64,000 bases of DNA, from the sequence record OQ223305.1. One strand, written 5' to 3'. Under the pieces are notes generated by a model. That model did no database searches and was not told where the DNA came from. It saw nothing but the letters and a program-made list of their open reading frames with translations. How positions within the stretch are numbered: position 1 is the stretch's first letter; every line of letters begins with the position of its first letter. This stretch comes from Escherichia phage EO1. Below, piece by piece: positions 24,674 through 34,766 of the stretch. A program made the position numbers and the translations under genes.

Positions 24674-25009
24674 ATGTCTGAAGTACAACAGCTACCAATT
24701 CGTGCTGTCGGTGAATATGTTATTTTAGTTTCTGAACCTGCACAAGCCGGTGATGAAGAAGTTACAGAATCAGGACTTATTATCGGTAAACGTGTTCAAG
24801 GTGAAGTTCCTGAACTGTGTGTAATTCACTCTGTTGGTCCTGATGTTCCTGAAGGTTTCTGTGAAGTTGGTGATTTGACTTCTCTTCCAGTTGGTCAAAT
24901 TCGAAACGTTCCGCATCCTTTTGTAGCCCTAGGTCTTAAGCAGCCAAAAGAAATTAAACAAAAATTTGTTACCTGTCACTATAAAGCTATTCCGTGTCTT
25001 TATAAGTGA
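24674..25009 (+). CDS. 31: Co-chaperonin gp31 (GroES analogue for capsid folding)
   Basis: 111 aa, same length and position as T4 gp31. Confidence 0.9.
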
Positions 25010-25135: not shown

Positions 25136-25384
25136 ATGATTAAACAATTACAACACGCTCTTGAACTGCAACGAAACGCATGGAATAATGGTCACGAAAA
25201 CTATGGCGCATCTATTGATGTTGAAGCCGAAGCTCTTGAAATCCTGCGTTATTTCAAACATCTGAATCCTGCTCAAACTGCATTAGCTGCTGAGCTTCAG
25301 GAAAAAGATGAACTTAAATATGCTAAGCCTCTGGCTTCTGCCGCACGAAAAGCAGTTCGTCACTTTGTGGTAACACTGAAGTAA
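25136..25384 (+). CDS. rIII: rIII lysis inhibition accessory protein
   Basis: 82 aa, same length and position as T4 rIII. Confidence 0.85.
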   Translation: MIKQLQHALELQRNAWNNGHENYGASIDVEAEALEILRYFKHLNPAQTALAAELQEKDELKYAKPLASAARKAVRHFVVTLK

Positions 25385-25578
25385 TTTATTGGAGATTCAC
25401 TGCCTTAGTGTGAGCTAAAATCGAGGAGCCGTCGAACTTTGTTTTACGGTGTACCTCTTGAATGTTGACGAGGTTTATGGTTATCCTGTCGGTAAATACT
25501 CAAAACCTATGTTCCCCTTGAGGGCTTGCGCAGGCAATGCCAATAAGTCCTGCATTTTCATTTAAAAGAGAATTTATA

Positions 25579-25755
25579 ATGGCAAAACAAGTTAAAGCAA
25601 AGAAAGCAGTTGAAAAGAAAGTTGGTGATTCTAAACGCGCTGGTTACAAGCGTGGGTCGAACTCTCGTATCAATCAAACTGTTGAGAAGATCATGCGCCG
25701 AGCACGTGCGGTTCTTCGAGATGATGCTTCTCGTTTTGGTAAGCAGAAAGCATAA
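25579..25755 (+). CDS. Hypothetical small basic protein
   Basis: 58 aa from ATG 25579 (MAKQVKAKK...); the track's longer ORF from 25537 lacks an RBS; followed by a strong terminator. Confidence 0.5.
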   Translation: MAKQVKAKKAVEKKVGDSKRAGYKRGSNSRINQTVEKIMRRARAVLRDDASRFGKQKA

Positions 25756-25759
25756 GTTG

Positions 25760-25789
25760 AGGACTCCTTCGGGAGTCCTTTTTTATTTT
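25760..25789 (+). terminator. Rho-independent terminator
   Basis: aggactcc-ttcg-ggagtcct hairpin followed by tttttatttt. Confidence 0.8.
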
Positions 25790-25865: not shown

Positions 25866-26198
25866 ATGAAAACGATTAATCTGAACGCTACAGTTAAAAC
25901 TAAATGCTTCAATGGTAAATATGATGAAACTATGTGGTTCTTAATGGCAGTTGAAGGTGATATTATTGAAGTAGAAACAACAGAAGGTATGGGAACAGAT
26001 TTCACCTTTACAATTCAAGTTCATAATTTCTTTACTGGTTGGATTTATGAATTGAATACAGTAATCGTTGGAAAAATTGAACAAAATGAATTAGGCGAAT
26101 GGTATTATGTTACAGCTCGCCAACGTGCAGAACGCTTAATTGAGAAGATGAAAAAAGTTGGTAAACTTGACATGCAGCACTGGAAAGTAGTAAAATAA
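25866..26198 (+). CDS. Hypothetical protein
   Basis: 110 aa with AAGGAG RBS. Confidence 0.55.
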   Translation: MKTINLNATVKTKCFNGKYDETMWFLMAVEGDIIEVETTEGMGTDFTFTIQVHNFFTGWIYELNTVIVGKIEQNELGEWYYVTARQRAERLIEKMKKVGKLDMQHWKVVK

Positions 26199-26266: not shown

Positions 26267-26632
26267 ATGAACTACATTAACTTTGAACGTAAATATGTTT
26301 CTAATGGTATTGCAGGTTCTATTGATACTATCTGCCTTTGGAAACATCAAAATGGATCAGTATGCGAAATTGAACAGTATATGACTCCTAACTACGTTTA
26401 TATGCGATTTGAAAATGGCATCACGGTTTCAATCACGAAAGAAGGTTCTTCTTTTAAAATCGCATTAGATGATGATTTCCGTCAACGCGATTTAGGTACT
26501 CATCCTTGCTGGAATGGCGTCAATCGTAAGCTTCTGGTTAAAACTTGGATTCGTCATATTCTGAGTAACAGAGCTAAACCTGAGCATCTTGAAGCGATCT
26601 TTGATGTAGTTCTTAACGAATTTGATATTTAA
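26267..26632 (+). CDS. Hypothetical protein
   Basis: 121 aa with GGAGAA RBS. Confidence 0.55.
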   Translation: MNYINFERKYVSNGIAGSIDTICLWKHQNGSVCEIEQYMTPNYVYMRFENGITVSITKEGSSFKIALDDDFRQRDLGTHPCWNGVNRKLLVKTWIRHILSNRAKPEHLEAIFDVVLNEFDI

Positions 26633-26641
26633 AATAAAATG

Positions 26642-26657
26642 AGGGGCTTCGGCCCCT
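26642..26657 (+). other. Intercistronic UUCG-tetraloop hairpin (stability or processing element; not a clear terminator)
   Basis: aggggc-ttcg-gcccct with no downstream T-run; RBS follows directly. Confidence 0.45.
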
Positions 26658-26673
26658 TACTGAGGAAAATACT

Positions 26674-26961
26674 ATGTTTATGACTACTTATTTTGATACC
26701 CGTAAAAATTTCTGTGAAGTGGTTTTCTCAAAGGCGCCTAAAGGCCTTCCTGCTCATTTGCAACCTACCAGTGAATCGATTAAAAACTATGTTAATGCAG
26801 TCTGCCCTTTAGAGTTCCGTACTGTAAATGGGCGTGATACTCTAGCTATCGCTAAACTCAATCGTGAAATTGACATTGACCCTTCAATTGCGCGTGAAAT
26901 TAACATTTCTGATATTGACGGCGGTAATGTTAAATCGCATGGTTTTCAGATGAGGTTCTAA
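26674..26961 (+). CDS. Hypothetical protein
   Basis: 95 aa with GAGG RBS. Confidence 0.55.
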   Translation: MFMTTYFDTRKNFCEVVFSKAPKGLPAHLQPTSESIKNYVNAVCPLEFRTVNGRDTLAIAKLNREIDIDPSIAREINISDIDGGNVKSHGFQMRF

Positions 26962-27158
26962 TGAAATTCTTTTTGGGTCAAACTGTTGAATTAAAGGGAG
27001 TTGGTATACCTGGATTAATTTCTAAGGTTCTACCTCCATTTAAATGGAGTGGTATTCAAATAAAAGAGGCTTATATTGTTTCCTGGGTAGATGGAAATGA
27101 AGACCTTCGTATGGGTGATGAATTATCTCCTATTTACGGATTAAAGGAATTAGTATGA
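26961..27158 (+). CDS. Hypothetical protein
   Basis: 65 aa, ATGA coupling. Confidence 0.45.
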   Translation: MKFFLGQTVELKGVGIPGLISKVLPPFKWSGIQIKEAYIVSWVDGNEDLRMGDELSPIYGLKELV

Positions 27159-27361
27159 ATATAATTAATAAGATTTTTGGAATTCAGTACATTAAGGTCA
27201 CATATAAAGTAACGTATAAAGGTCCGTATACCGATGAACATGAAGAACCACAAGTTCAGTCTATTATATTAGAAAAGGACCCTAACTGGCCAGTTGAATT
27301 TCGTCTTCCTTGCTATGGTCATTGGGCTGATGTTGAAATTATAAGTATTGAAAATGTCTGA
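27155..27361 (+). CDS. Hypothetical protein
   Basis: 68 aa. Confidence 0.45.
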   Translation: MNIINKIFGIQYIKVTYKVTYKGPYTDEHEEPQVQSIILEKDPNWPVEFRLPCYGHWADVEIISIENV

Positions 27362-27812
27362 GCTAGAGATAAGAAGCAATTTTAAATGGCCATCATGCGC
27401 ATTAAGTAATTTCGCCCAATGGCCTTTCGTTATGGATGGTATTCAATTTGGAGGTCTCGAAGGATTCCTCCAAGGGTGTAAGGTGAAAAATGTTGAACAA
27501 CAAAGACGTATATTTGGGTTATCCGGGCTTGCCGCTCAACAAGCTGGAAGGTCTTATGCTAGAGCTCAGGATCGTGGCACGTTGTTCTGGCTTGGAGTTC
27601 CGTTTTCAAGATACTCCCCGGCGTGGAAAGAATTATACACAAATGCATATTTTGAAGCAGCGATCCAAAACAGGGGCTTTCGTGATGCATTACAAGCCTC
27701 GAAAGGAAAAGTTTTGAAGCACAGCATGGCTAGTGGTCTAACAAAAGATGATACAATACTAACCGAAGCTGAATTTATTGATGTGTTAAACCTATTAAGA
27801 GACTCTCTATGA
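27354..27812 (+). CDS. NADAR/YbiA-like (DUF1768) domain protein
   Basis: LSNFAQWPFVMDGIQFGGLEGFLQGCK parallels the remembered YbiA core FSNFAAWPIKVDGKTWPTSEHYFQAQK; ATG at 27354 preferred over the TTG at 27348. Confidence 0.6.
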   Translation: MSELEIRSNFKWPSCALSNFAQWPFVMDGIQFGGLEGFLQGCKVKNVEQQRRIFGLSGLAAQQAGRSYARAQDRGTLFWLGVPFSRYSPAWKELYTNAYFEAAIQNRGFRDALQASKGKVLKHSMASGLTKDDTILTEAEFIDVLNLLRDSL

Positions 27813-28645
27813 AGCCAACTATTTTAACTGATATTGATGGAGTATGTTTAAGCTGGCAATCAGGCCTTCCTTATTTTGCTCAGAAATATAATCTTCCGTT
27901 AGAACATATTTTAAAAATGATCCAAGATGAGAAATTTATTTCTCCGGGTAAACTCTTTAATTGTGACGAAGAACTTGGCGTCAAGTTAATTGAAAAATAC
28001 AATCGTTCAGATTTTATTCGTTACTTGTCTCCGTATAAAGATGCCCTGTGTGTAATTAACAAATTAAAAGAAGATTATAATTTTGTAGCTGTTACAGCAT
28101 TAGGTGATTCTATTGACGCTCTGTTGAATCGTCAATTTAATTTGAATGCTCTTTTTCCTGGTGCTTTTTCGGAAGTAATGATGTGTGGTCATGATTCTTC
28201 AAAAGAAGAGTTATTCAAAAAGGCAAAAGAGAAATATAACGTAATTTGTTATATTGACGATCTCGCTCATCACTGCGATCATGCGAGTGAAATATTAAAT
28301 GTTCCAGTTTATTGGATGGCTCGAGGGGAGCGTGATAATATTCCAAAAACTGCTCAGCGAGTTTATACATGGAATGATGTAGAAAATAAGCTTTTTTCGC
28401 CAAAGGAAAATAAAGAAAGTTTTGATAGTGAAAAAGCTATAAAAGATGTAATTGAGAAGATGGTTAAAAACGATTCTTTTCCTTGGAACACTACCTGGAG
28501 AACTCCTGGATTTAATCCTTATAATCTATATCATCCATATCAGACACATCCGTTTCAGACATGGAACTATATTAAACCCGGCGGCATAGAGTATTTGTAT
28601 AATAGACCTACTTGTGGTGATAATATTTTTCAAGGAGCATTCTAA
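27809..28645 (+). CDS. HAD-superfamily-like hydrolase/phosphatase
   Basis: N-terminal LTDIDGV (DxDG[TV] motif I) and later CYIDD. Confidence 0.5.
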   Translation: MKPTILTDIDGVCLSWQSGLPYFAQKYNLPLEHILKMIQDEKFISPGKLFNCDEELGVKLIEKYNRSDFIRYLSPYKDALCVINKLKEDYNFVAVTALGDSIDALLNRQFNLNALFPGAFSEVMMCGHDSSKEELFKKAKEKYNVICYIDDLAHHCDHASEILNVPVYWMARGERDNIPKTAQRVYTWNDVENKLFSPKENKESFDSEKAIKDVIEKMVKNDSFPWNTTWRTPGFNPYNLYHPYQTHPFQTWNYIKPGGIEYLYNRPTCGDNIFQGAF

Positions 28646-28914
28646 TGTTTGTTGTTCATACTATTTATGAAAATGAAGGTAATACTACACGTGATTATGG
28701 ACACGTAAATCAATTTTTTAGATGCAATCCAGAATTCCGTGCTCAAAAGGATGAACGAATTTTTAAAAAATGTGTAGAACAAGGTTTCATTTACGTCAAG
28801 CACTGGATGCAAGGAAATAAAGTTAGAACTACATATCATAAGTCTTTGCCTGAGCTTAATGATGAATTGATTTATAATAGAGCTGTAAACCAAACTTTGA
28901 AGGATGAGCAATGA
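28645..28914 (+). CDS. Hypothetical protein
   Basis: 89 aa, TAATG coupling. Confidence 0.5.
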   Translation: MFVVHTIYENEGNTTRDYGHVNQFFRCNPEFRAQKDERIFKKCVEQGFIYVKHWMQGNKVRTTYHKSLPELNDELIYNRAVNQTLKDEQ

Positions 28915-30374
28915 TTCTTAAAATTCTGAATGAAATAGCATCTATTGGATCAACTAAGCAGAAGCAAGCAATTCTTGAAAAGAATAAAGATAATGAATTG
29001 CTTAAACGGGTATATCGTCTGACTTATTCTCGTGGGTTACAGTATTATATCAAGAAATGGCCTAAACCTGGTATTGCTACCCAGAGTTTTGGAATGCTGA
29101 CTATTACCGATATGCTTGACTTCATTGAATTCACGTTAGCTACTCGGAAATTGACCGGAAATGCTGCAATTGAGGAATTGACTGGATATATCACCGATGG
29201 TAAAAAGGATGATGTTGAAGTTTTGCGTCGAGTGATGATGCGAGACCTTGAATGCGGTGCTTCAGTATCTATTGCAAACAAAGTTTGGCCAGGTTTAATT
29301 CCTGAACAACCTCAAATGCTGGCAAGTTCTTATGATGAAAAGGGCATTAGTAAGAATATCAAATTTCCAGCCTTTGCACAGTTAAAAGCAGATGGAGCTC
29401 GGTGTTTTGCTGAAGTCCGAGGTGATGAATTAGATGATGTTCGTCTTTTATCACGAGCTGGTAATGAATATCTAGGATTAGATCTTCTTAAGGAAGAGTT
29501 AATCAAAATGACTGCTGAAGCCCGCCAGATTCATCCAGAAGGTGTGTTAATTGATGGCGAATTGGTATACCATGAGCAAGTTAAAAAGGAACCAGAAGGC
29601 CTAGATTTTCTTTTTGATGCTTATCCTGAAATTAGTAAAGCTAAAGAATTCGCCGAAGTAGCGGAATCTCGTACTACTTCTAATGGAATCGCCAATAAAT
29701 CCTTAAAAGGAACCATTTCTGAAAAAGAAGCTCAATGTATGAAGTTTCAGGTCTGGGATTATGTCCCGTTGGTAGAAATATATGGTCTTCCGGCGTTTCG
29801 TTTAAAATATGATGTACGTTTTTCTAAACTAGAACAAATGACATCAGGATATGATAAAGTAATTTTAATTGAAAACCAGGTAGTAAATAACCTAGATGAA
29901 GCTAAGGTAATTTATAAAAAGTATATTGACCAAGGTCTTGAAGGTATTATTCTCAAAAATACCGATGGATTGTGGGAAAATGCTCGTTCAAAAAATCTCT
30001 ATAAATTTAAAGAAGTAATTGATGTTGATTTAAAAATTGTAGGAATTTATCCTCACCGTAAAGACCCTACTAAAGCAGGTGGATTTATTCTTGAATCAGA
30101 GTGTGGAAAAATTAAAGTAAATGCTGGTTCAGGCTTAAAAGATAAAGCCGGTGTAAAATCACATGAACTTGACCGTACTCGCATTATGGAAAACCAAAAT
30201 TATTATATTGGAAAAATTCTAGAGTGCGAATGCAATGGTTGGTTAAAATCTGATGGCCGCGCCGATTATGTTAAATTATTTCTTCCGATTGCGATTCGTT
30301 TACGTGAAGATAAAACTAAAGCTAATACATTCGAGGATGTATTTGGTGATTTTCATGAGGTAACTGGTCTATGA
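28911..30374 (+). CDS. 30: ATP-dependent DNA ligase
   Basis: 487 aa; KADGAR adenylation motif; same length as T4 DNA ligase. Confidence 0.95.
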   Translation: MILKILNEIASIGSTKQKQAILEKNKDNELLKRVYRLTYSRGLQYYIKKWPKPGIATQSFGMLTITDMLDFIEFTLATRKLTGNAAIEELTGYITDGKKDDVEVLRRVMMRDLECGASVSIANKVWPGLIPEQPQMLASSYDEKGISKNIKFPAFAQLKADGARCFAEVRGDELDDVRLLSRAGNEYLGLDLLKEELIKMTAEARQIHPEGVLIDGELVYHEQVKKEPEGLDFLFDAYPEISKAKEFAEVAESRTTSNGIANKSLKGTISEKEAQCMKFQVWDYVPLVEIYGLPAFRLKYDVRFSKLEQMTSGYDKVILIENQVVNNLDEAKVIYKKYIDQGLEGIILKNTDGLWENARSKNLYKFKEVIDVDLKIVGIYPHRKDPTKAGGFILESECGKIKVNAGSGLKDKAGVKSHELDRTRIMENQNYYIGKILECECNGWLKSDGRADYVKLFLPIAIRLREDKTKANTFEDVFGDFHEVTGL

Positions 30375-30588: not shown

Positions 30589-30611
30589 GAATAAACACTA
30601 GAGAGGATATG

Positions 30612-32705
30612 ATGGAACTCATTACAGAATTATTTGACGAAGATACTACTCTTCCGATTACAAACTTAAATCCAAAGAAGAAAATACCACAAATTTTTTC
30701 AGTTCATGTTGATGATGCAATTGAACAACCAGGCTTTCGTTTATGTACCTATACATCTGGAGGTGATACTAATCGTGATTTAAAGATGGGCGATAAAATG
30801 ATGCATATTGTTCCTTTTACATTAACTGCTAAAGGTTCAATTGCTAAATTAAAAGGTCTTGGTCCAAGCCCGATTAATTATATCAATTCAGTTTTTACTG
30901 TTGCAATGCAAACAATGCGTCAATATAAAATTGATGCCTGTATGCTTCGTATTCTTAAGTCTAAAACTGCTGGCCAAGCTCGACAAATTCAAGTTATTGC
31001 TGATAGACTTATCCGTAGTCGTTCAGGTGGTAGATACGTCCTTCTTAAGGAACTCTGGGATTACGATAAAAAGTATGCATATATTCTTATACATCGCAAA
31101 AATGTATCACTAGAAGACATTCCAGGAGTTCCGGAAATTAGTACCGAGCTCTTTACTAAAGTTGAATCGAAAGTCGGTGATGTTTATATCAATAAAGATA
31201 CTGGAGCCCAAGTAACTAAAAATGAGGCAATTGCAGCATCAATTGCACAAGAAAATGATAAACGTTCTGACCAAGCCGTAATCGTTAAAGTTAAAATTTC
31301 CCGTAGAGCAATTGCACAAAGTCAGTCATTGGAATCTTCTAGATTTGAAAGTGAATTATTCCAGAAGTATGAATCTACAGCAGCTAATTTTAATAAACCA
31401 GCTACTGCACCTTTAATTCCCGAAGCAGAAGAAATGAAAATTGGAATTAATTCATTAGCTTCTAAAACAAAGGCAGCAAAAATTATTGCTGAAGGAACGG
31501 CAAATGAACTTCACTATGATTATAAATTCTTTCCAATGAGTCAAGTCGGTGAAGTTTCAGAAAAAATTAAAGAAGTAATTTTTAATGCAATTAAAAATGA
31601 ACCAACTACTTCAATAAAATGTTTAGAGAAATACGCAGCAGCTGTAAATCAATTCTTTGAAGATTATAAAGATAAATGGCTTGCTAATCATAATAAAAAT
31701 CGTAAAGGACAACCAGATGAAGTCTGGGAAGAAATAACTAAAAATTCCTGGAACGCAGCAAAAACTAAATTCCTCAAACGAATGATTTACAGTTTTTCTG
31801 GAATTGGTTCTGGTCCAATGATTGATATTACTATTGCCCGCGATGGTTCTAAATATACTCCATCACAAAAGCGTGGCATTAGAGAATATTGCGGTTCAGG
31901 ATATACTGACATCAATAATCTTCTTTTAGGTCGTTACAATCCAGAACGATATGATGTAATGAGTGAAAAAGAAATTGAATCTGCTATAAATAACTTAGAT
32001 TCAGCTTTTGAAAATGGTGACCGTATACCAGAAGGCATTACAGTTTATCGTGCTCAAAGTATGACTGCTCCTATATATGAAGCGTTAGTTAAAAATAAAG
32101 TGTTCTATTTCAGAAATTTTGTATCTACTTCTTTAACTCCTATCATTTTTGGGCGTTTTGGAATTACACATGCTGGTATTGGTCTTTTAGAACCAGAAGC
32201 TCGTAACGAATTGACAGTTGATAAAAATGAAGAAGGAATAACTATTAATCCAAACGAAATAAGAGCGTATAAAGAAAATCCTGAATACGTTAAAGTTCAA
32301 ATAGGATGGGCAATTGATGGAGCTCATAAAGTTAATGTTGTATATCCAGGAAGTCTCGGAATAGCAACAGAAGCTGAAGTTATTCTACCACGAGGATTGA
32401 TGGTCAAAGTTAATAAAATAACTGATGCTTCTAATAATGACGGAACAACATCTAATAATACAAAACTCATTCAAGCTGAAGTTATGACTACGGAAGAACT
32501 CACCGAATCAGTAATTTATGACGGTGACCGTCTAATGGAAACTGGTGAAGTAGTTGCAATGACAGGTGATATTGAAATAGAAGACAGAGTTGACTTTGCA
32601 TCATTTGTTTCATCAAATGTTAAACAGAAAGCAGAATCATCTCTCGGAATTATTGCGTCTTGCATAGATATTACAAACATGCCTTACAAGTTCGTTCAAG
32701 GATAA
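30612..32705 (+). CDS. alt: Alt-type ADP-ribosyltransferase (copy 1)
   Basis: 697 aa; N-terminus MELITELFDEDTTLPITNL; R-S-ExE ART motifs (YRAQ, FVSTSL, EAEVILPRG). Confidence 0.85.
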   Translation: MELITELFDEDTTLPITNLNPKKKIPQIFSVHVDDAIEQPGFRLCTYTSGGDTNRDLKMGDKMMHIVPFTLTAKGSIAKLKGLGPSPINYINSVFTVAMQTMRQYKIDACMLRILKSKTAGQARQIQVIADRLIRSRSGGRYVLLKELWDYDKKYAYILIHRKNVSLEDIPGVPEISTELFTKVESKVGDVYINKDTGAQVTKNEAIAASIAQENDKRSDQAVIVKVKISRRAIAQSQSLESSRFESELFQKYESTAANFNKPATAPLIPEAEEMKIGINSLASKTKAAKIIAEGTANELHYDYKFFPMSQVGEVSEKIKEVIFNAIKNEPTTSIKCLEKYAAAVNQFFEDYKDKWLANHNKNRKGQPDEVWEEITKNSWNAAKTKFLKRMIYSFSGIGSGPMIDITIARDGSKYTPSQKRGIREYCGSGYTDINNLLLGRYNPERYDVMSEKEIESAINNLDSAFENGDRIPEGITVYRAQSMTAPIYEALVKNKVFYFRNFVSTSLTPIIFGRFGITHAGIGLLEPEARNELTVDKNEEGITINPNEIRAYKENPEYVKVQIGWAIDGAHKVNVVYPGSLGIATEAEVILPRGLMVKVNKITDASNNDGTTSNNTKLIQAEVMTTEELTESVIYDGDRLMETGEVVAMTGDIEIEDRVDFASFVSSNVKQKAESSLGIIASCIDITNMPYKFVQG

Positions 32706-32708
32706 ATC

Positions 32709-34766
32709 ATGGAACTTATTACAGAATTATTTGACGGCGCTTCGGCGCCGGTTGTTAACTTAAATCCTAAGCATAAAATACCTCAAATTTTTGCTATTCA
32801 AGCCGGTGAAGAAAGCGTGCTTCCTGGATTTAGATTTTGTACATACACCTCTGGCGGTGATACAAATAAAAACGTTAAGCCAGGCGATAAAATGATGCAT
32901 ATCGTAATGATAGGTGTCAATGAGAAACTATCATTAGTTAAACTTAAAAACTTGGGTGGAAATCCAATTGGTGTTATTAATGCGGTTTTTGATACTGCTC
33001 TTCAAACAATGAAACAGTATAAAATTGACGCATGCCTGTTCCGCGTACTAAAGAGTAAAACAAATGGCGCAGCTCGACAAATTCAAGTTATTGCTGACCG
33101 TTTAGTACGTACTAAAGGAGCAGGTCGATATGTTCTTTTAAAGGAAATCTGGGATTACGATAAAAAGTATGCATATATTATGGTTTACCGTAAAAATGCC
33201 AATTTAGAAGACATTCCAGGTGTACCTCCTATTTCAACTGAGTTATTCACAAAAGTTGAATCAAAGGTTGGTGATGTTTATGTAGACGTTAAAACAGGTA
33301 ATGCTGTTCCTAAAGCTGTTGCTGTTGCCGCTTCTATTGCTTTAGAAAATGATAAGCGCACGGATCAAGCTGTTATTCAGAAAACTAAAATTAGTCGTCG
33401 ATTAGCAGCACAAGCTCAATACTCTACTGTCGATGCTTCACTTCAGGGCGATAGTTTCGCTGCTAAGAAATATCAAGAGTTTGAATCTAAAGTTCCGGTA
33501 TATAAAGCAGAAGGACCAATGAACTCTGGCGTTATTCAGATTGGTTCAAACTTCGGCAAAGGAGCTATCGGTGGTATGAGGAGTGCTTCTCGTTTTAAAT
33601 CTAGTGATTATGAACTAGAAAGCTTCCGAAATCATATTGCATTGGCCCATGCGCGTTTACGTGATCCATCTATTAAATTACAGAGCGATATAACATATCA
33701 AGGTTCTCAGGAATATTTAAAGAATAAAGAATTTTTTGATTATAAAACTGATAAAATTTTAAGCGATCTTGCTGACATTAATATTTCTAATAGCTTTGAT
33801 GTTATTAAGAAAATTGTCAATGATTTAGTTAAAGGTTCTAAAGCCACGCCAGATGAAAAGGTAGCTATTATTCAATTTGTCATGAATGGCATTTATAAAT
33901 TGATTAATGAGTCTGCTTCTCAAGCGTATGAATATGCAAGTACTGAAGTACCCCCAAAAGGATTAACTCGGGCTGAGTCTGATGTAATTGAAGATTATTG
34001 CGCAGATTCATATGTTGAAATGAACTCGTTCCTTTTAGGTAAACCGGATTCTACTCGTGAAGAATATATGGAACGAGCTATTAAACACATCGAGACGATG
34101 GATTCTGCTTTTGCCAAAGGATCAGTTCTTCCTCCAGGAACTACGCTTTACCGTGGCCAAGAAGTTACCTTTAAAACTTTACGTCATAATATTGAAAATA
34201 AAATGTTCTATTTTAAGAACTTCGTATCCACATCGCTTAAACCAAATATCTTCGGTGAGTATGGTAAAAACTATATGACTCTAGATGATTCCAGTGCAGT
34301 ATTTTCTGGTGAAGGAGAAGGTTCAATTGACGCAGAAGATTTGATGCATATGGGCAGTCATTCTGCTTATGCGAATGAAGATGCTGAAACTAGCGTGGGT
34401 ATGGTAATTAAAGGAGCTGAGCGAATCAAAGTTATCGTTCCGGGTCATTTATCAGGATTTCCGTCAGAAGCTGAAGTTATTTTACCACGTGGAATTTTGC
34501 TGAAGATTAATAAAGTGAGCACGTACATGATGAAAGAAACTGCTTATAACAAGTATTTAATCGAAGGTACAATCGTTCCTCCTTCTGAACAATTAGAAGA
34601 ATCGGTATATGATGGCGATCATCTGATGGAAACTGGTGAAGTTCGTCCAATGGCTGGATTTAATCAATTCCTTGTAGAAGAATCAAAAGAAGAGGAAAAC
34701 GAAGTTTCTCAAATCTTGGCTTCTTTGGTTAACATCAACGGAATGTCTAAAAAGTTCAAAATGTAG
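32709..34766 (+). CDS. Alt-family ADP-ribosyltransferase paralog (copy 2)
   Basis: 685 aa; collinear with copy 1 (MELITELFDG...; YRGQ, FVSTSL, EAEVILPRG). Confidence 0.8.
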   Translation: MELITELFDGASAPVVNLNPKHKIPQIFAIQAGEESVLPGFRFCTYTSGGDTNKNVKPGDKMMHIVMIGVNEKLSLVKLKNLGGNPIGVINAVFDTALQTMKQYKIDACLFRVLKSKTNGAARQIQVIADRLVRTKGAGRYVLLKEIWDYDKKYAYIMVYRKNANLEDIPGVPPISTELFTKVESKVGDVYVDVKTGNAVPKAVAVAASIALENDKRTDQAVIQKTKISRRLAAQAQYSTVDASLQGDSFAAKKYQEFESKVPVYKAEGPMNSGVIQIGSNFGKGAIGGMRSASRFKSSDYELESFRNHIALAHARLRDPSIKLQSDITYQGSQEYLKNKEFFDYKTDKILSDLADINISNSFDVIKKIVNDLVKGSKATPDEKVAIIQFVMNGIYKLINESASQAYEYASTEVPPKGLTRAESDVIEDYCADSYVEMNSFLLGKPDSTREEYMERAIKHIETMDSAFAKGSVLPPGTTLYRGQEVTFKTLRHNIENKMFYFKNFVSTSLKPNIFGEYGKNYMTLDDSSAVFSGEGEGSIDAEDLMHMGSHSAYANEDAETSVGMVIKGAERIKVIVPGHLSGFPSEAEVILPRGILLKINKVSTYMMKETAYNKYLIEGTIVPPSEQLEESVYDGDHLMETGEVRPMAGFNQFLVEESKEEENEVSQILASLVNINGMSKKFKM

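Follow-up and report, generated by a model that had tools for sequence, protein, structure and literature searches.

The orthologue of T4 gene 30.3 in Escherichia phage EO1 is very probably adfN, a core-only phage-branch NADAR predicted to counter DarTG1

In a 64,000-nucleotide (nt) stretch of DNA from Escherichia phage EO1 (OQ223305.1), referred to here as the window, we examined the open reading frame (ORF) at 27354..27812. With high confidence, we assign this ORF as adfN (T4 gene 30.3) of a Tequatrovirus, encoding a minimal, core-only NADAR of the phage branch that counters the DarTG1 defense. The setting is a well-documented arms race: ADP-ribosylation of phage DNA by bacterial DarTG1 is answered in T-even phages by an orphan copy of the antitoxin chemistry, which reverses the damage. 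The gene and the residues central to the assignment are as follows.

27354..27812, + strand: adfN (T4 gene 30.3 orthologue), encoding a 152-residue phage-type NADAR, by analogy with T4 a putative DNA guanine ADP-ribosylglycohydrolase
27405..27482, + strand: active-site motif S18-K43 (SNF...DG...E36-G-F-L-Q-x-x-K43), aligned to YbiA residues 29-55
27459..27461, + strand: codon GAA, catalytic glutamate E36, read from the sequence
27480..27482, + strand: codon AAG, phosphate-coordinating lysine K43, read from the sequence
27720..27722, + strand: codon CAC, last-strand histidine H123, read from the sequence
27765..27809, + strand: C-terminal helix, residues 138-152 (model helix H138-151)

The ORF extends from an ATG at 27354 to a TGA at 27810-27812 on the + strand (459 nt, 152 residues), and with this ATG as residue 1 the catalytic Glu and Lys fall at 36 and 43, as published. 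An alternative in-frame TTG start at 27348 (154 residues) was rejected, since the ATG agrees both with this numbering and with the annotation of T4, where gene 30.3 is likewise 459 nt. The product is identical to T4 gp30.3 (NP_049816) at 149 of 152 positions (98%, ungapped), differing only by K11R, R107K and M125I (window residue first); all three changes are conservative, and nothing about them would suggest a functional difference. One GenBank phage, Shigella phage ESh26, has a protein identical at every position (100%), and the DNA from 26500 to 29000 is 97.7% identical to Tequatrovirus genomes. The PF08010 (Phage_30_3) profile was matched along its entire length (positions 1-138/138; E = 7.8e-70; 233.5 bits, the gathering threshold being 36), while a PHROGs scan returned only phrog_652, a family labelled 'unknown function'. 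The gene order around adfN is also that of T4 (31, rIII, 30.9 to 30.1, 30).

What the T4 orthologue does has been published. Johannesman et al. renamed T4 30.3 adfN, for anti-DarT factor NADAR (bioRxiv 2024, PMC11257639; Nat Commun 2025;16:1598, PMC11825919). Deletion of adfN in T4 or T2 abolished plaque formation on DarTG1-carrying cells, and ectopic AdfN brought RB69 plaquing back fully, with no effect on DarTG2 (Johannesman et al.). Binding between AdfN and DarT1 was not seen in a two-hybrid assay, and the purified protein took ADP-ribose off DarT1-modified DNA (PMC11257639). In an independent in vitro study, T4 NADAR hydrolysed guanosine-ADP-ribose but not thymidine-ADP-ribose (PMC11125620), and cytidine-ADP-ribose was not removed in a 2026 study (PMC12945103). 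Because phages with unmodified DNA were rescued little or not at all by AdfN and non-glucosylated T4 was still protected, the published rescue data on the T4 protein point to a preference for hydroxymethylcytosine DNA; the basis of this preference is a family-wide question rather than one specific to the window.

We infer that the activity, base specificity, DarTG1 phenotype and hydroxymethylcytosine preference carry over to EO1 from the 98%-identical T4 protein. EO1, with its intact adfN, would thus be resistant to DarTG1, the practical consequence for this phage. A preliminary description of the ORF had proposed that it could counter DarT-type host defenses, and this proposal gains support from the T4 AdfN results on DarT1 reversal. 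The window gene brings no biology beyond that reported by Johannesman et al. in 2025 and in the Ahel-lab NADAR papers.

By analogy with T4, the sequence of events would be as follows. Upon infection of a DarTG1 host, DarT1 would ADP-ribosylate guanine in the phage DNA, blocking replication. AdfN would then cleave the N-glycosidic bond of guanine-N2-ADP-ribose, restoring unmodified DNA and allowing replication to proceed, and so would act as an 'orphan antitoxin' that imitates chemically what DarG1 does for the host. The reaction is expected to involve E36, K43 and the phage-type H123, with the C-terminal helix required. We consider it unlikely that AdfN has a second role beyond DarTG1, such as guanine de-ADP-ribosylation of RNA, removal of marks left by guanine ADP-ribosyltransferases (ARTs) other than DarT, or, together with the possibly HAD-like gp30.2, disposal of the released ADP-ribose; as part of this unlikely reading, the hydroxymethylcytosine restriction could represent a new mode of substrate recognition.

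It was also proposed for phage NADARs in 2022, from gene context and before the experiments, that they act on a soluble ADP-ribose-derived molecule (PMC9503650). Applied to adfN, the main substrate would be an immune signal or an RNA-repair by-product and the action on ADP-ribosylated DNA only secondary, and the poor performance of AdfN in vivo on unmodified DNA would fit. Given that genetics and biochemistry both speak directly for a role on DNA against DarTG1, and no soluble substrate having been found in the AdfN/NADAR literature examined, this explanation is very unlikely.

The catalytic residues reported for T4 AdfN and for phage NADARs are present in the EO1 product. Across an alignment of 60 full-length family members (A1), which is the source of our family profile and of the statements on invariance, S18, N19, F20, F25, E36, G37, F38, Q40, K43 and H123 are invariant. 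E36 and K43, which form an E-x6-K pattern following SNF...DG, align to E48 and K55 of YbiA, and E36A and K43A each abolish T4 AdfN function (PMC11257639). In the model, H123 falls within the final strand (E120-123). The third catalytic residue has been described as Glu in YbiA, Asp in DarG1/BC4488 and His in phage NADARs (PMC11125620, PMC11543638). At the C-terminus, residues 126-152, including the helix, are identical to T4. In the RB69 copy, a one-base insertion at nt 411 removes the last 15 residues and with them this helix (PMC11257639), and RB69 is DarTG1-sensitive because the helix is lost by the frameshift.

The identity of the third catalytic residue also bears on whether the protein is instead a YbiA-type housekeeping N-glycosidase of small molecules, for example of reactive riboflavin-pathway intermediates, a function with which YbiA-family enzymes have been annotated (PMC11125620, PMC9503650). 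YbiA is both the best Foldseek match and the sole PDB sequence match. The YbiA subfamily is defined by a Glu in the last beta-strand, however, and A1 has an invariant His at that position; this residue and the T4 data contradict the housekeeping function, which we regard as extremely improbable.

The assignment of the phage protein to the NADAR family was evaluated using profiles and structure. A homology search gave 97 relatives, all with PF08010 and several named 'YbiA (DUF1768 family)' by JGI; one of the 97 bears PF08010 and PF08719 together. Among the 60 aligned members, 23 individually match PF08719 (best E = 1.5e-7), and when the family profile was compared with PDB, E. coli YbiA (2b3w) was the only meaningful sequence match (E = 0.002). 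The hidden Markov model (HMM) alignment of the gp30.3-family profile to 2b3w spans LSNFa..DG....EGFLQslK versus FSNFAAWPIKVDGKTWPTSEHYFQAQK, reproducing over the same segment an alignment that the preliminary description had made by eye; the peptide cited there, LSNFAQWPFVMDGIQFGGLEGFLQGCK, is found at residues 17-43 of the adfN product. The structural model has the NADAR fold, a helical core flanked by two small beta-sheets, with YbiA as its best Foldseek match. Together, the YbiA profile match and the 23 members with PF08719 bear out the earlier reading of the ORF as NADAR/YbiA-like. Orthology, fold, catalytic residues, an intact C-terminus and synteny are all observed for the window gene. 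The assignment of gp30.3-type proteins to NADAR precedes the experiments, with a 2023 structural paper crediting earlier bioinformatic superfamily studies (PMC11543638).

Several observations weigh against the assignment of this ORF as a DarTG1-countering NADAR. The window protein itself has no PF08719 (Pfam NADAR, formerly DUF1768) match even at E <= 1, although 23 of the 60 family members do have one and the family profile matches YbiA. It likewise gave no NCBIfam match, no PADLOC DarG-type match and no single-sequence PDB match. With no direct NADAR match for the window protein, its placement draws on the profile and fold evidence together with the literature; the remote NADAR relationship of the gp30.3 family is nevertheless solid. 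M125, one of the three substitutions relative to T4, sits two residues past H123, at a position where M is the family consensus. In addition, both groups found that T4 AdfN fails to rescue DarT1 toxicity in uninfected E. coli, and AdfN is therefore not a general antitoxin.

A further ORF lies within adfN.

27490..27717, + strand: 30.3' (75 residues), in the +1 frame inside adfN, annotated in T4, matching PF11097 (DUF2883) at 2.1e-45

We asked whether 30.3' might be the functional product instead of, or besides, gp30.3. The T4 record lists it as arising by internal translation; it matches PF11097, has a good Shine-Dalgarno-like AAGGTG 5 nt before its ATG, and is both intact here and retained in an 85%-identical relative. 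The substitution pattern is that of the longer frame: 14 of the 18 nucleotide differences from T4 in adfN are silent in the gp30.3 frame, indicating that selection acts on this frame. Against 30.3', 10 of its 75 residues are altered by the 11 differences located inside it, some radically (L>P, R>P, D>V), and 10 of these 11 leave the gp30.3 protein unchanged. In synonymous shuffles, a +1 ORF of 75 residues or more turns up 6% of the time, and three of the five divergent homologues (MHG19, Roth27 and JEP8) lack 30.3'. Moreover, E36A and K43A, which abolish anti-DarTG1 function (PMC11257639), lie upstream of 30.3'. On the basis of the substitution pattern and the synonymous-shuffle test, we rejected 30.3' as a real product; it is probably not constrained as a protein, and we give very little credence to its being functional. 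This in turn invites the question whether Pfam DUF2883 is itself an artefact of overprinting.

The features that surround adfN are listed below.

24674-25009: gp31 co-chaperonin, upstream of adfN
25136-25384: rIII, upstream of adfN
Upstream of adfN: 30.8 (PF06019)
Upstream of adfN: 30.7 (PF06919)
Upstream of adfN: ORFs at the positions of T4 30.6, 30.5 and 30.4
27155..27361: gene 30.4, directly upstream of adfN
27354..27361, + strand: ATGTCTGA overlap, in which the adfN start codon overlaps the gene 30.4 stop codon (sequence and ORF list)
27809..27812, + strand: ATGA overlap, in which the adfN stop overlaps the gene 30.2 start codon (same layout in T4)
27809..28645, + strand: gp30.2, 278 residues, putatively coupled to adfN in translation through the ATGA overlap
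Downstream of adfN: 30.1 (PF11243)
28911-30374: DNA ligase gp30, downstream of adfN
30609-32705, + strand: first Alt-type ART, PF03496 at 9.8e-38
32709-34766, + strand: second Alt-type ART, PF03496 at 6.1e-20

Tight, overlapping gene packing is typical of T4 early clusters. The ATGTCTGA overlap of the 30.4 stop with the adfN start suggests translational coupling, and no clear Shine-Dalgarno sequence was seen upstream of the adfN start. Judged by position, adfN would be expressed early with the 30.x cluster and be translationally coupled to both 30.4 and 30.2. A promoter and terminator scan did not exceed chance (25 promoter-like sites versus 20.7 +/- 5.2 expected), and we claim no promoter. 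The best sigma-70-like match of the region is at 26167..26196 (+ strand; TTGACA, 18 nt, TAAAAT; 11/12), just upstream of 30.7, and a strong hairpin followed by a T-run is found at 25759..25780, after a 72-residue ORF (25537..25755) at the position of T4 30.9. These could be a candidate early promoter and terminator bounding a transcription unit that includes adfN, with overall counts that are not above chance.

The preliminary description had placed two Alt-type ARTs and a HAD-like phosphatase in the same region. Both transferases were indeed found, with PF03496 matches, downstream of adfN; they are in tandem and full-length. The first matches T4 Alt at 70% identity in a mosaic fashion, being near-identical over its first ~245 residues and at its C-terminal end but divergent in the middle, the catalytic region included. 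The second shares only 42% identity; in its place T4 retains no more than the remnants alt.-1 and alt.-2, annotated as an old partial duplication of alt. The phosphatase, gp30.2, was not confirmed beyond motif resemblance and a weak PHROG match to polynucleotide kinase (E = 0.0021). Searches of gp30.2 against Pfam, NCBIfam, PADLOC and PDB sequences gave no match, and its single-sequence AF2 model (predicted local distance difference test score, pLDDT, of 34.5) was unusable. Its N-terminal ILTDIDGVCL, followed by VTALGD and YIDDL, resembles HAD motifs I, II and IV, and a HAD-like phosphatase is plausible from these motifs.

The nearby transferases raise another explanation, namely that adfN undoes or adjusts the ADP-ribosylation that the phage itself carries out with its Alt-type enzymes. 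The two ARTs are in the same early region as adfN. Alt, ModA and ModB modify protein arginine, which counts against this explanation. NADAR genes of T4-like phages have been described as expressed early alongside ARTs (Iyer et al., PMC9503650). T4 NADAR, however, acted on guanosine-ADP-ribose and not on the thymidine or cytidine forms, the ΔadfN phenotype is confined to DarTG1-carrying hosts, and in lineages with no ART near in the fetched loci the homologues stay beside the DNA ligase gene. The idea that adfN tunes the phage's own modification, also put forward in the preliminary description, had co-location as its sole support and is opposed by the guanosine specificity and the DarTG1-specific deletion phenotype; we find it highly improbable.

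Homologues of adfN are widespread, being encoded in 1,510 of 50,697 GenBank phage records. Roughly half are at least 80% identical and come from Escherichia, Shigella and Yersinia Tequatrovirus and relatives; about half are less than 60% identical, from phages of Klebsiella, Aeromonas, Acinetobacter, Vibrio and other hosts. In five homologue loci that we fetched, adfN is upstream of the DNA ligase gene, except that the CUA3 sequence ends before the ligase, with T4-like neighbours; the other four carry the annotations Tevenvirinae, Twarogvirinae or Krischvirus, or have no classification. Some database homologues (P0015, P0016, P0014, P0040 and P0088) are short or chimeric, combining PF08010 with PF11097 (the 30.3' frame), PF06919 (30.7), PF06019 (30.8) or, in P0088, PF26911. 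These suggest natural frameshifts, deletions or fusions of adfN in some T4-like phages, and phages with such a broken adfN would be predicted, by analogy with RB69, to be DarTG1-sensitive. Despite the 2025 functional assignment, almost every listed public phage record gives the adfN orthologue as a 'hypothetical protein'. The matched records could be corrected to adfN, a gap in annotation and not in biology.

Comparison with known systems places the EO1 protein closest to T4 AdfN, with which it shares its length, start and stop overlaps, neighbours and embedded 30.3' ORF, as well as E36, K43, H123 and the C-terminal helix. Compared with DarG1 (Geobacter/Trichlorobacter lovleyi, PDB 8bat; E. 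coli C7), the window adfN is an orphan that lacks a DarT1 gene beside it: the neighbouring products gp30.4 and gp30.2 have no ART domain, and the nearest ARTs are the Alt-type PF03496 proteins ~3 kb downstream. The DarG1 Asp is replaced by His, sequence identity is ~14%, and the adfN product is a core domain only, lacking the N-terminal extension of DarG1 (PMC12945103). Unlike DarG1, T4 AdfN does not neutralise DarT1 in uninfected cells. AdfN is thus an orphan that works like DarG1 and is not a DarTG1 component.

E. coli YbiA (2b3w; PF08719, formerly DUF1768) differs in having Glu where the adfN product has H123, in its housekeeping, SOS-operon gene context, and in also removing cytidine-ADP-ribose, which T4 NADAR does not (PMC12945103). 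The Phytophthora nicotianae NADAR (PDB 8bau, ADP-ribose complex) is a eukaryotic protein of 189 residues with Glu as the third catalytic residue and 18% identity. AdfA (T4 gp61.2) and AdfB (ICP1) target DarTG, as AdfN does, but these two are small proteins without enzymatic activity that are believed to bind the toxin DarT, whereas AdfN repairs DNA enzymatically without binding DarT1 (PMC11257639).
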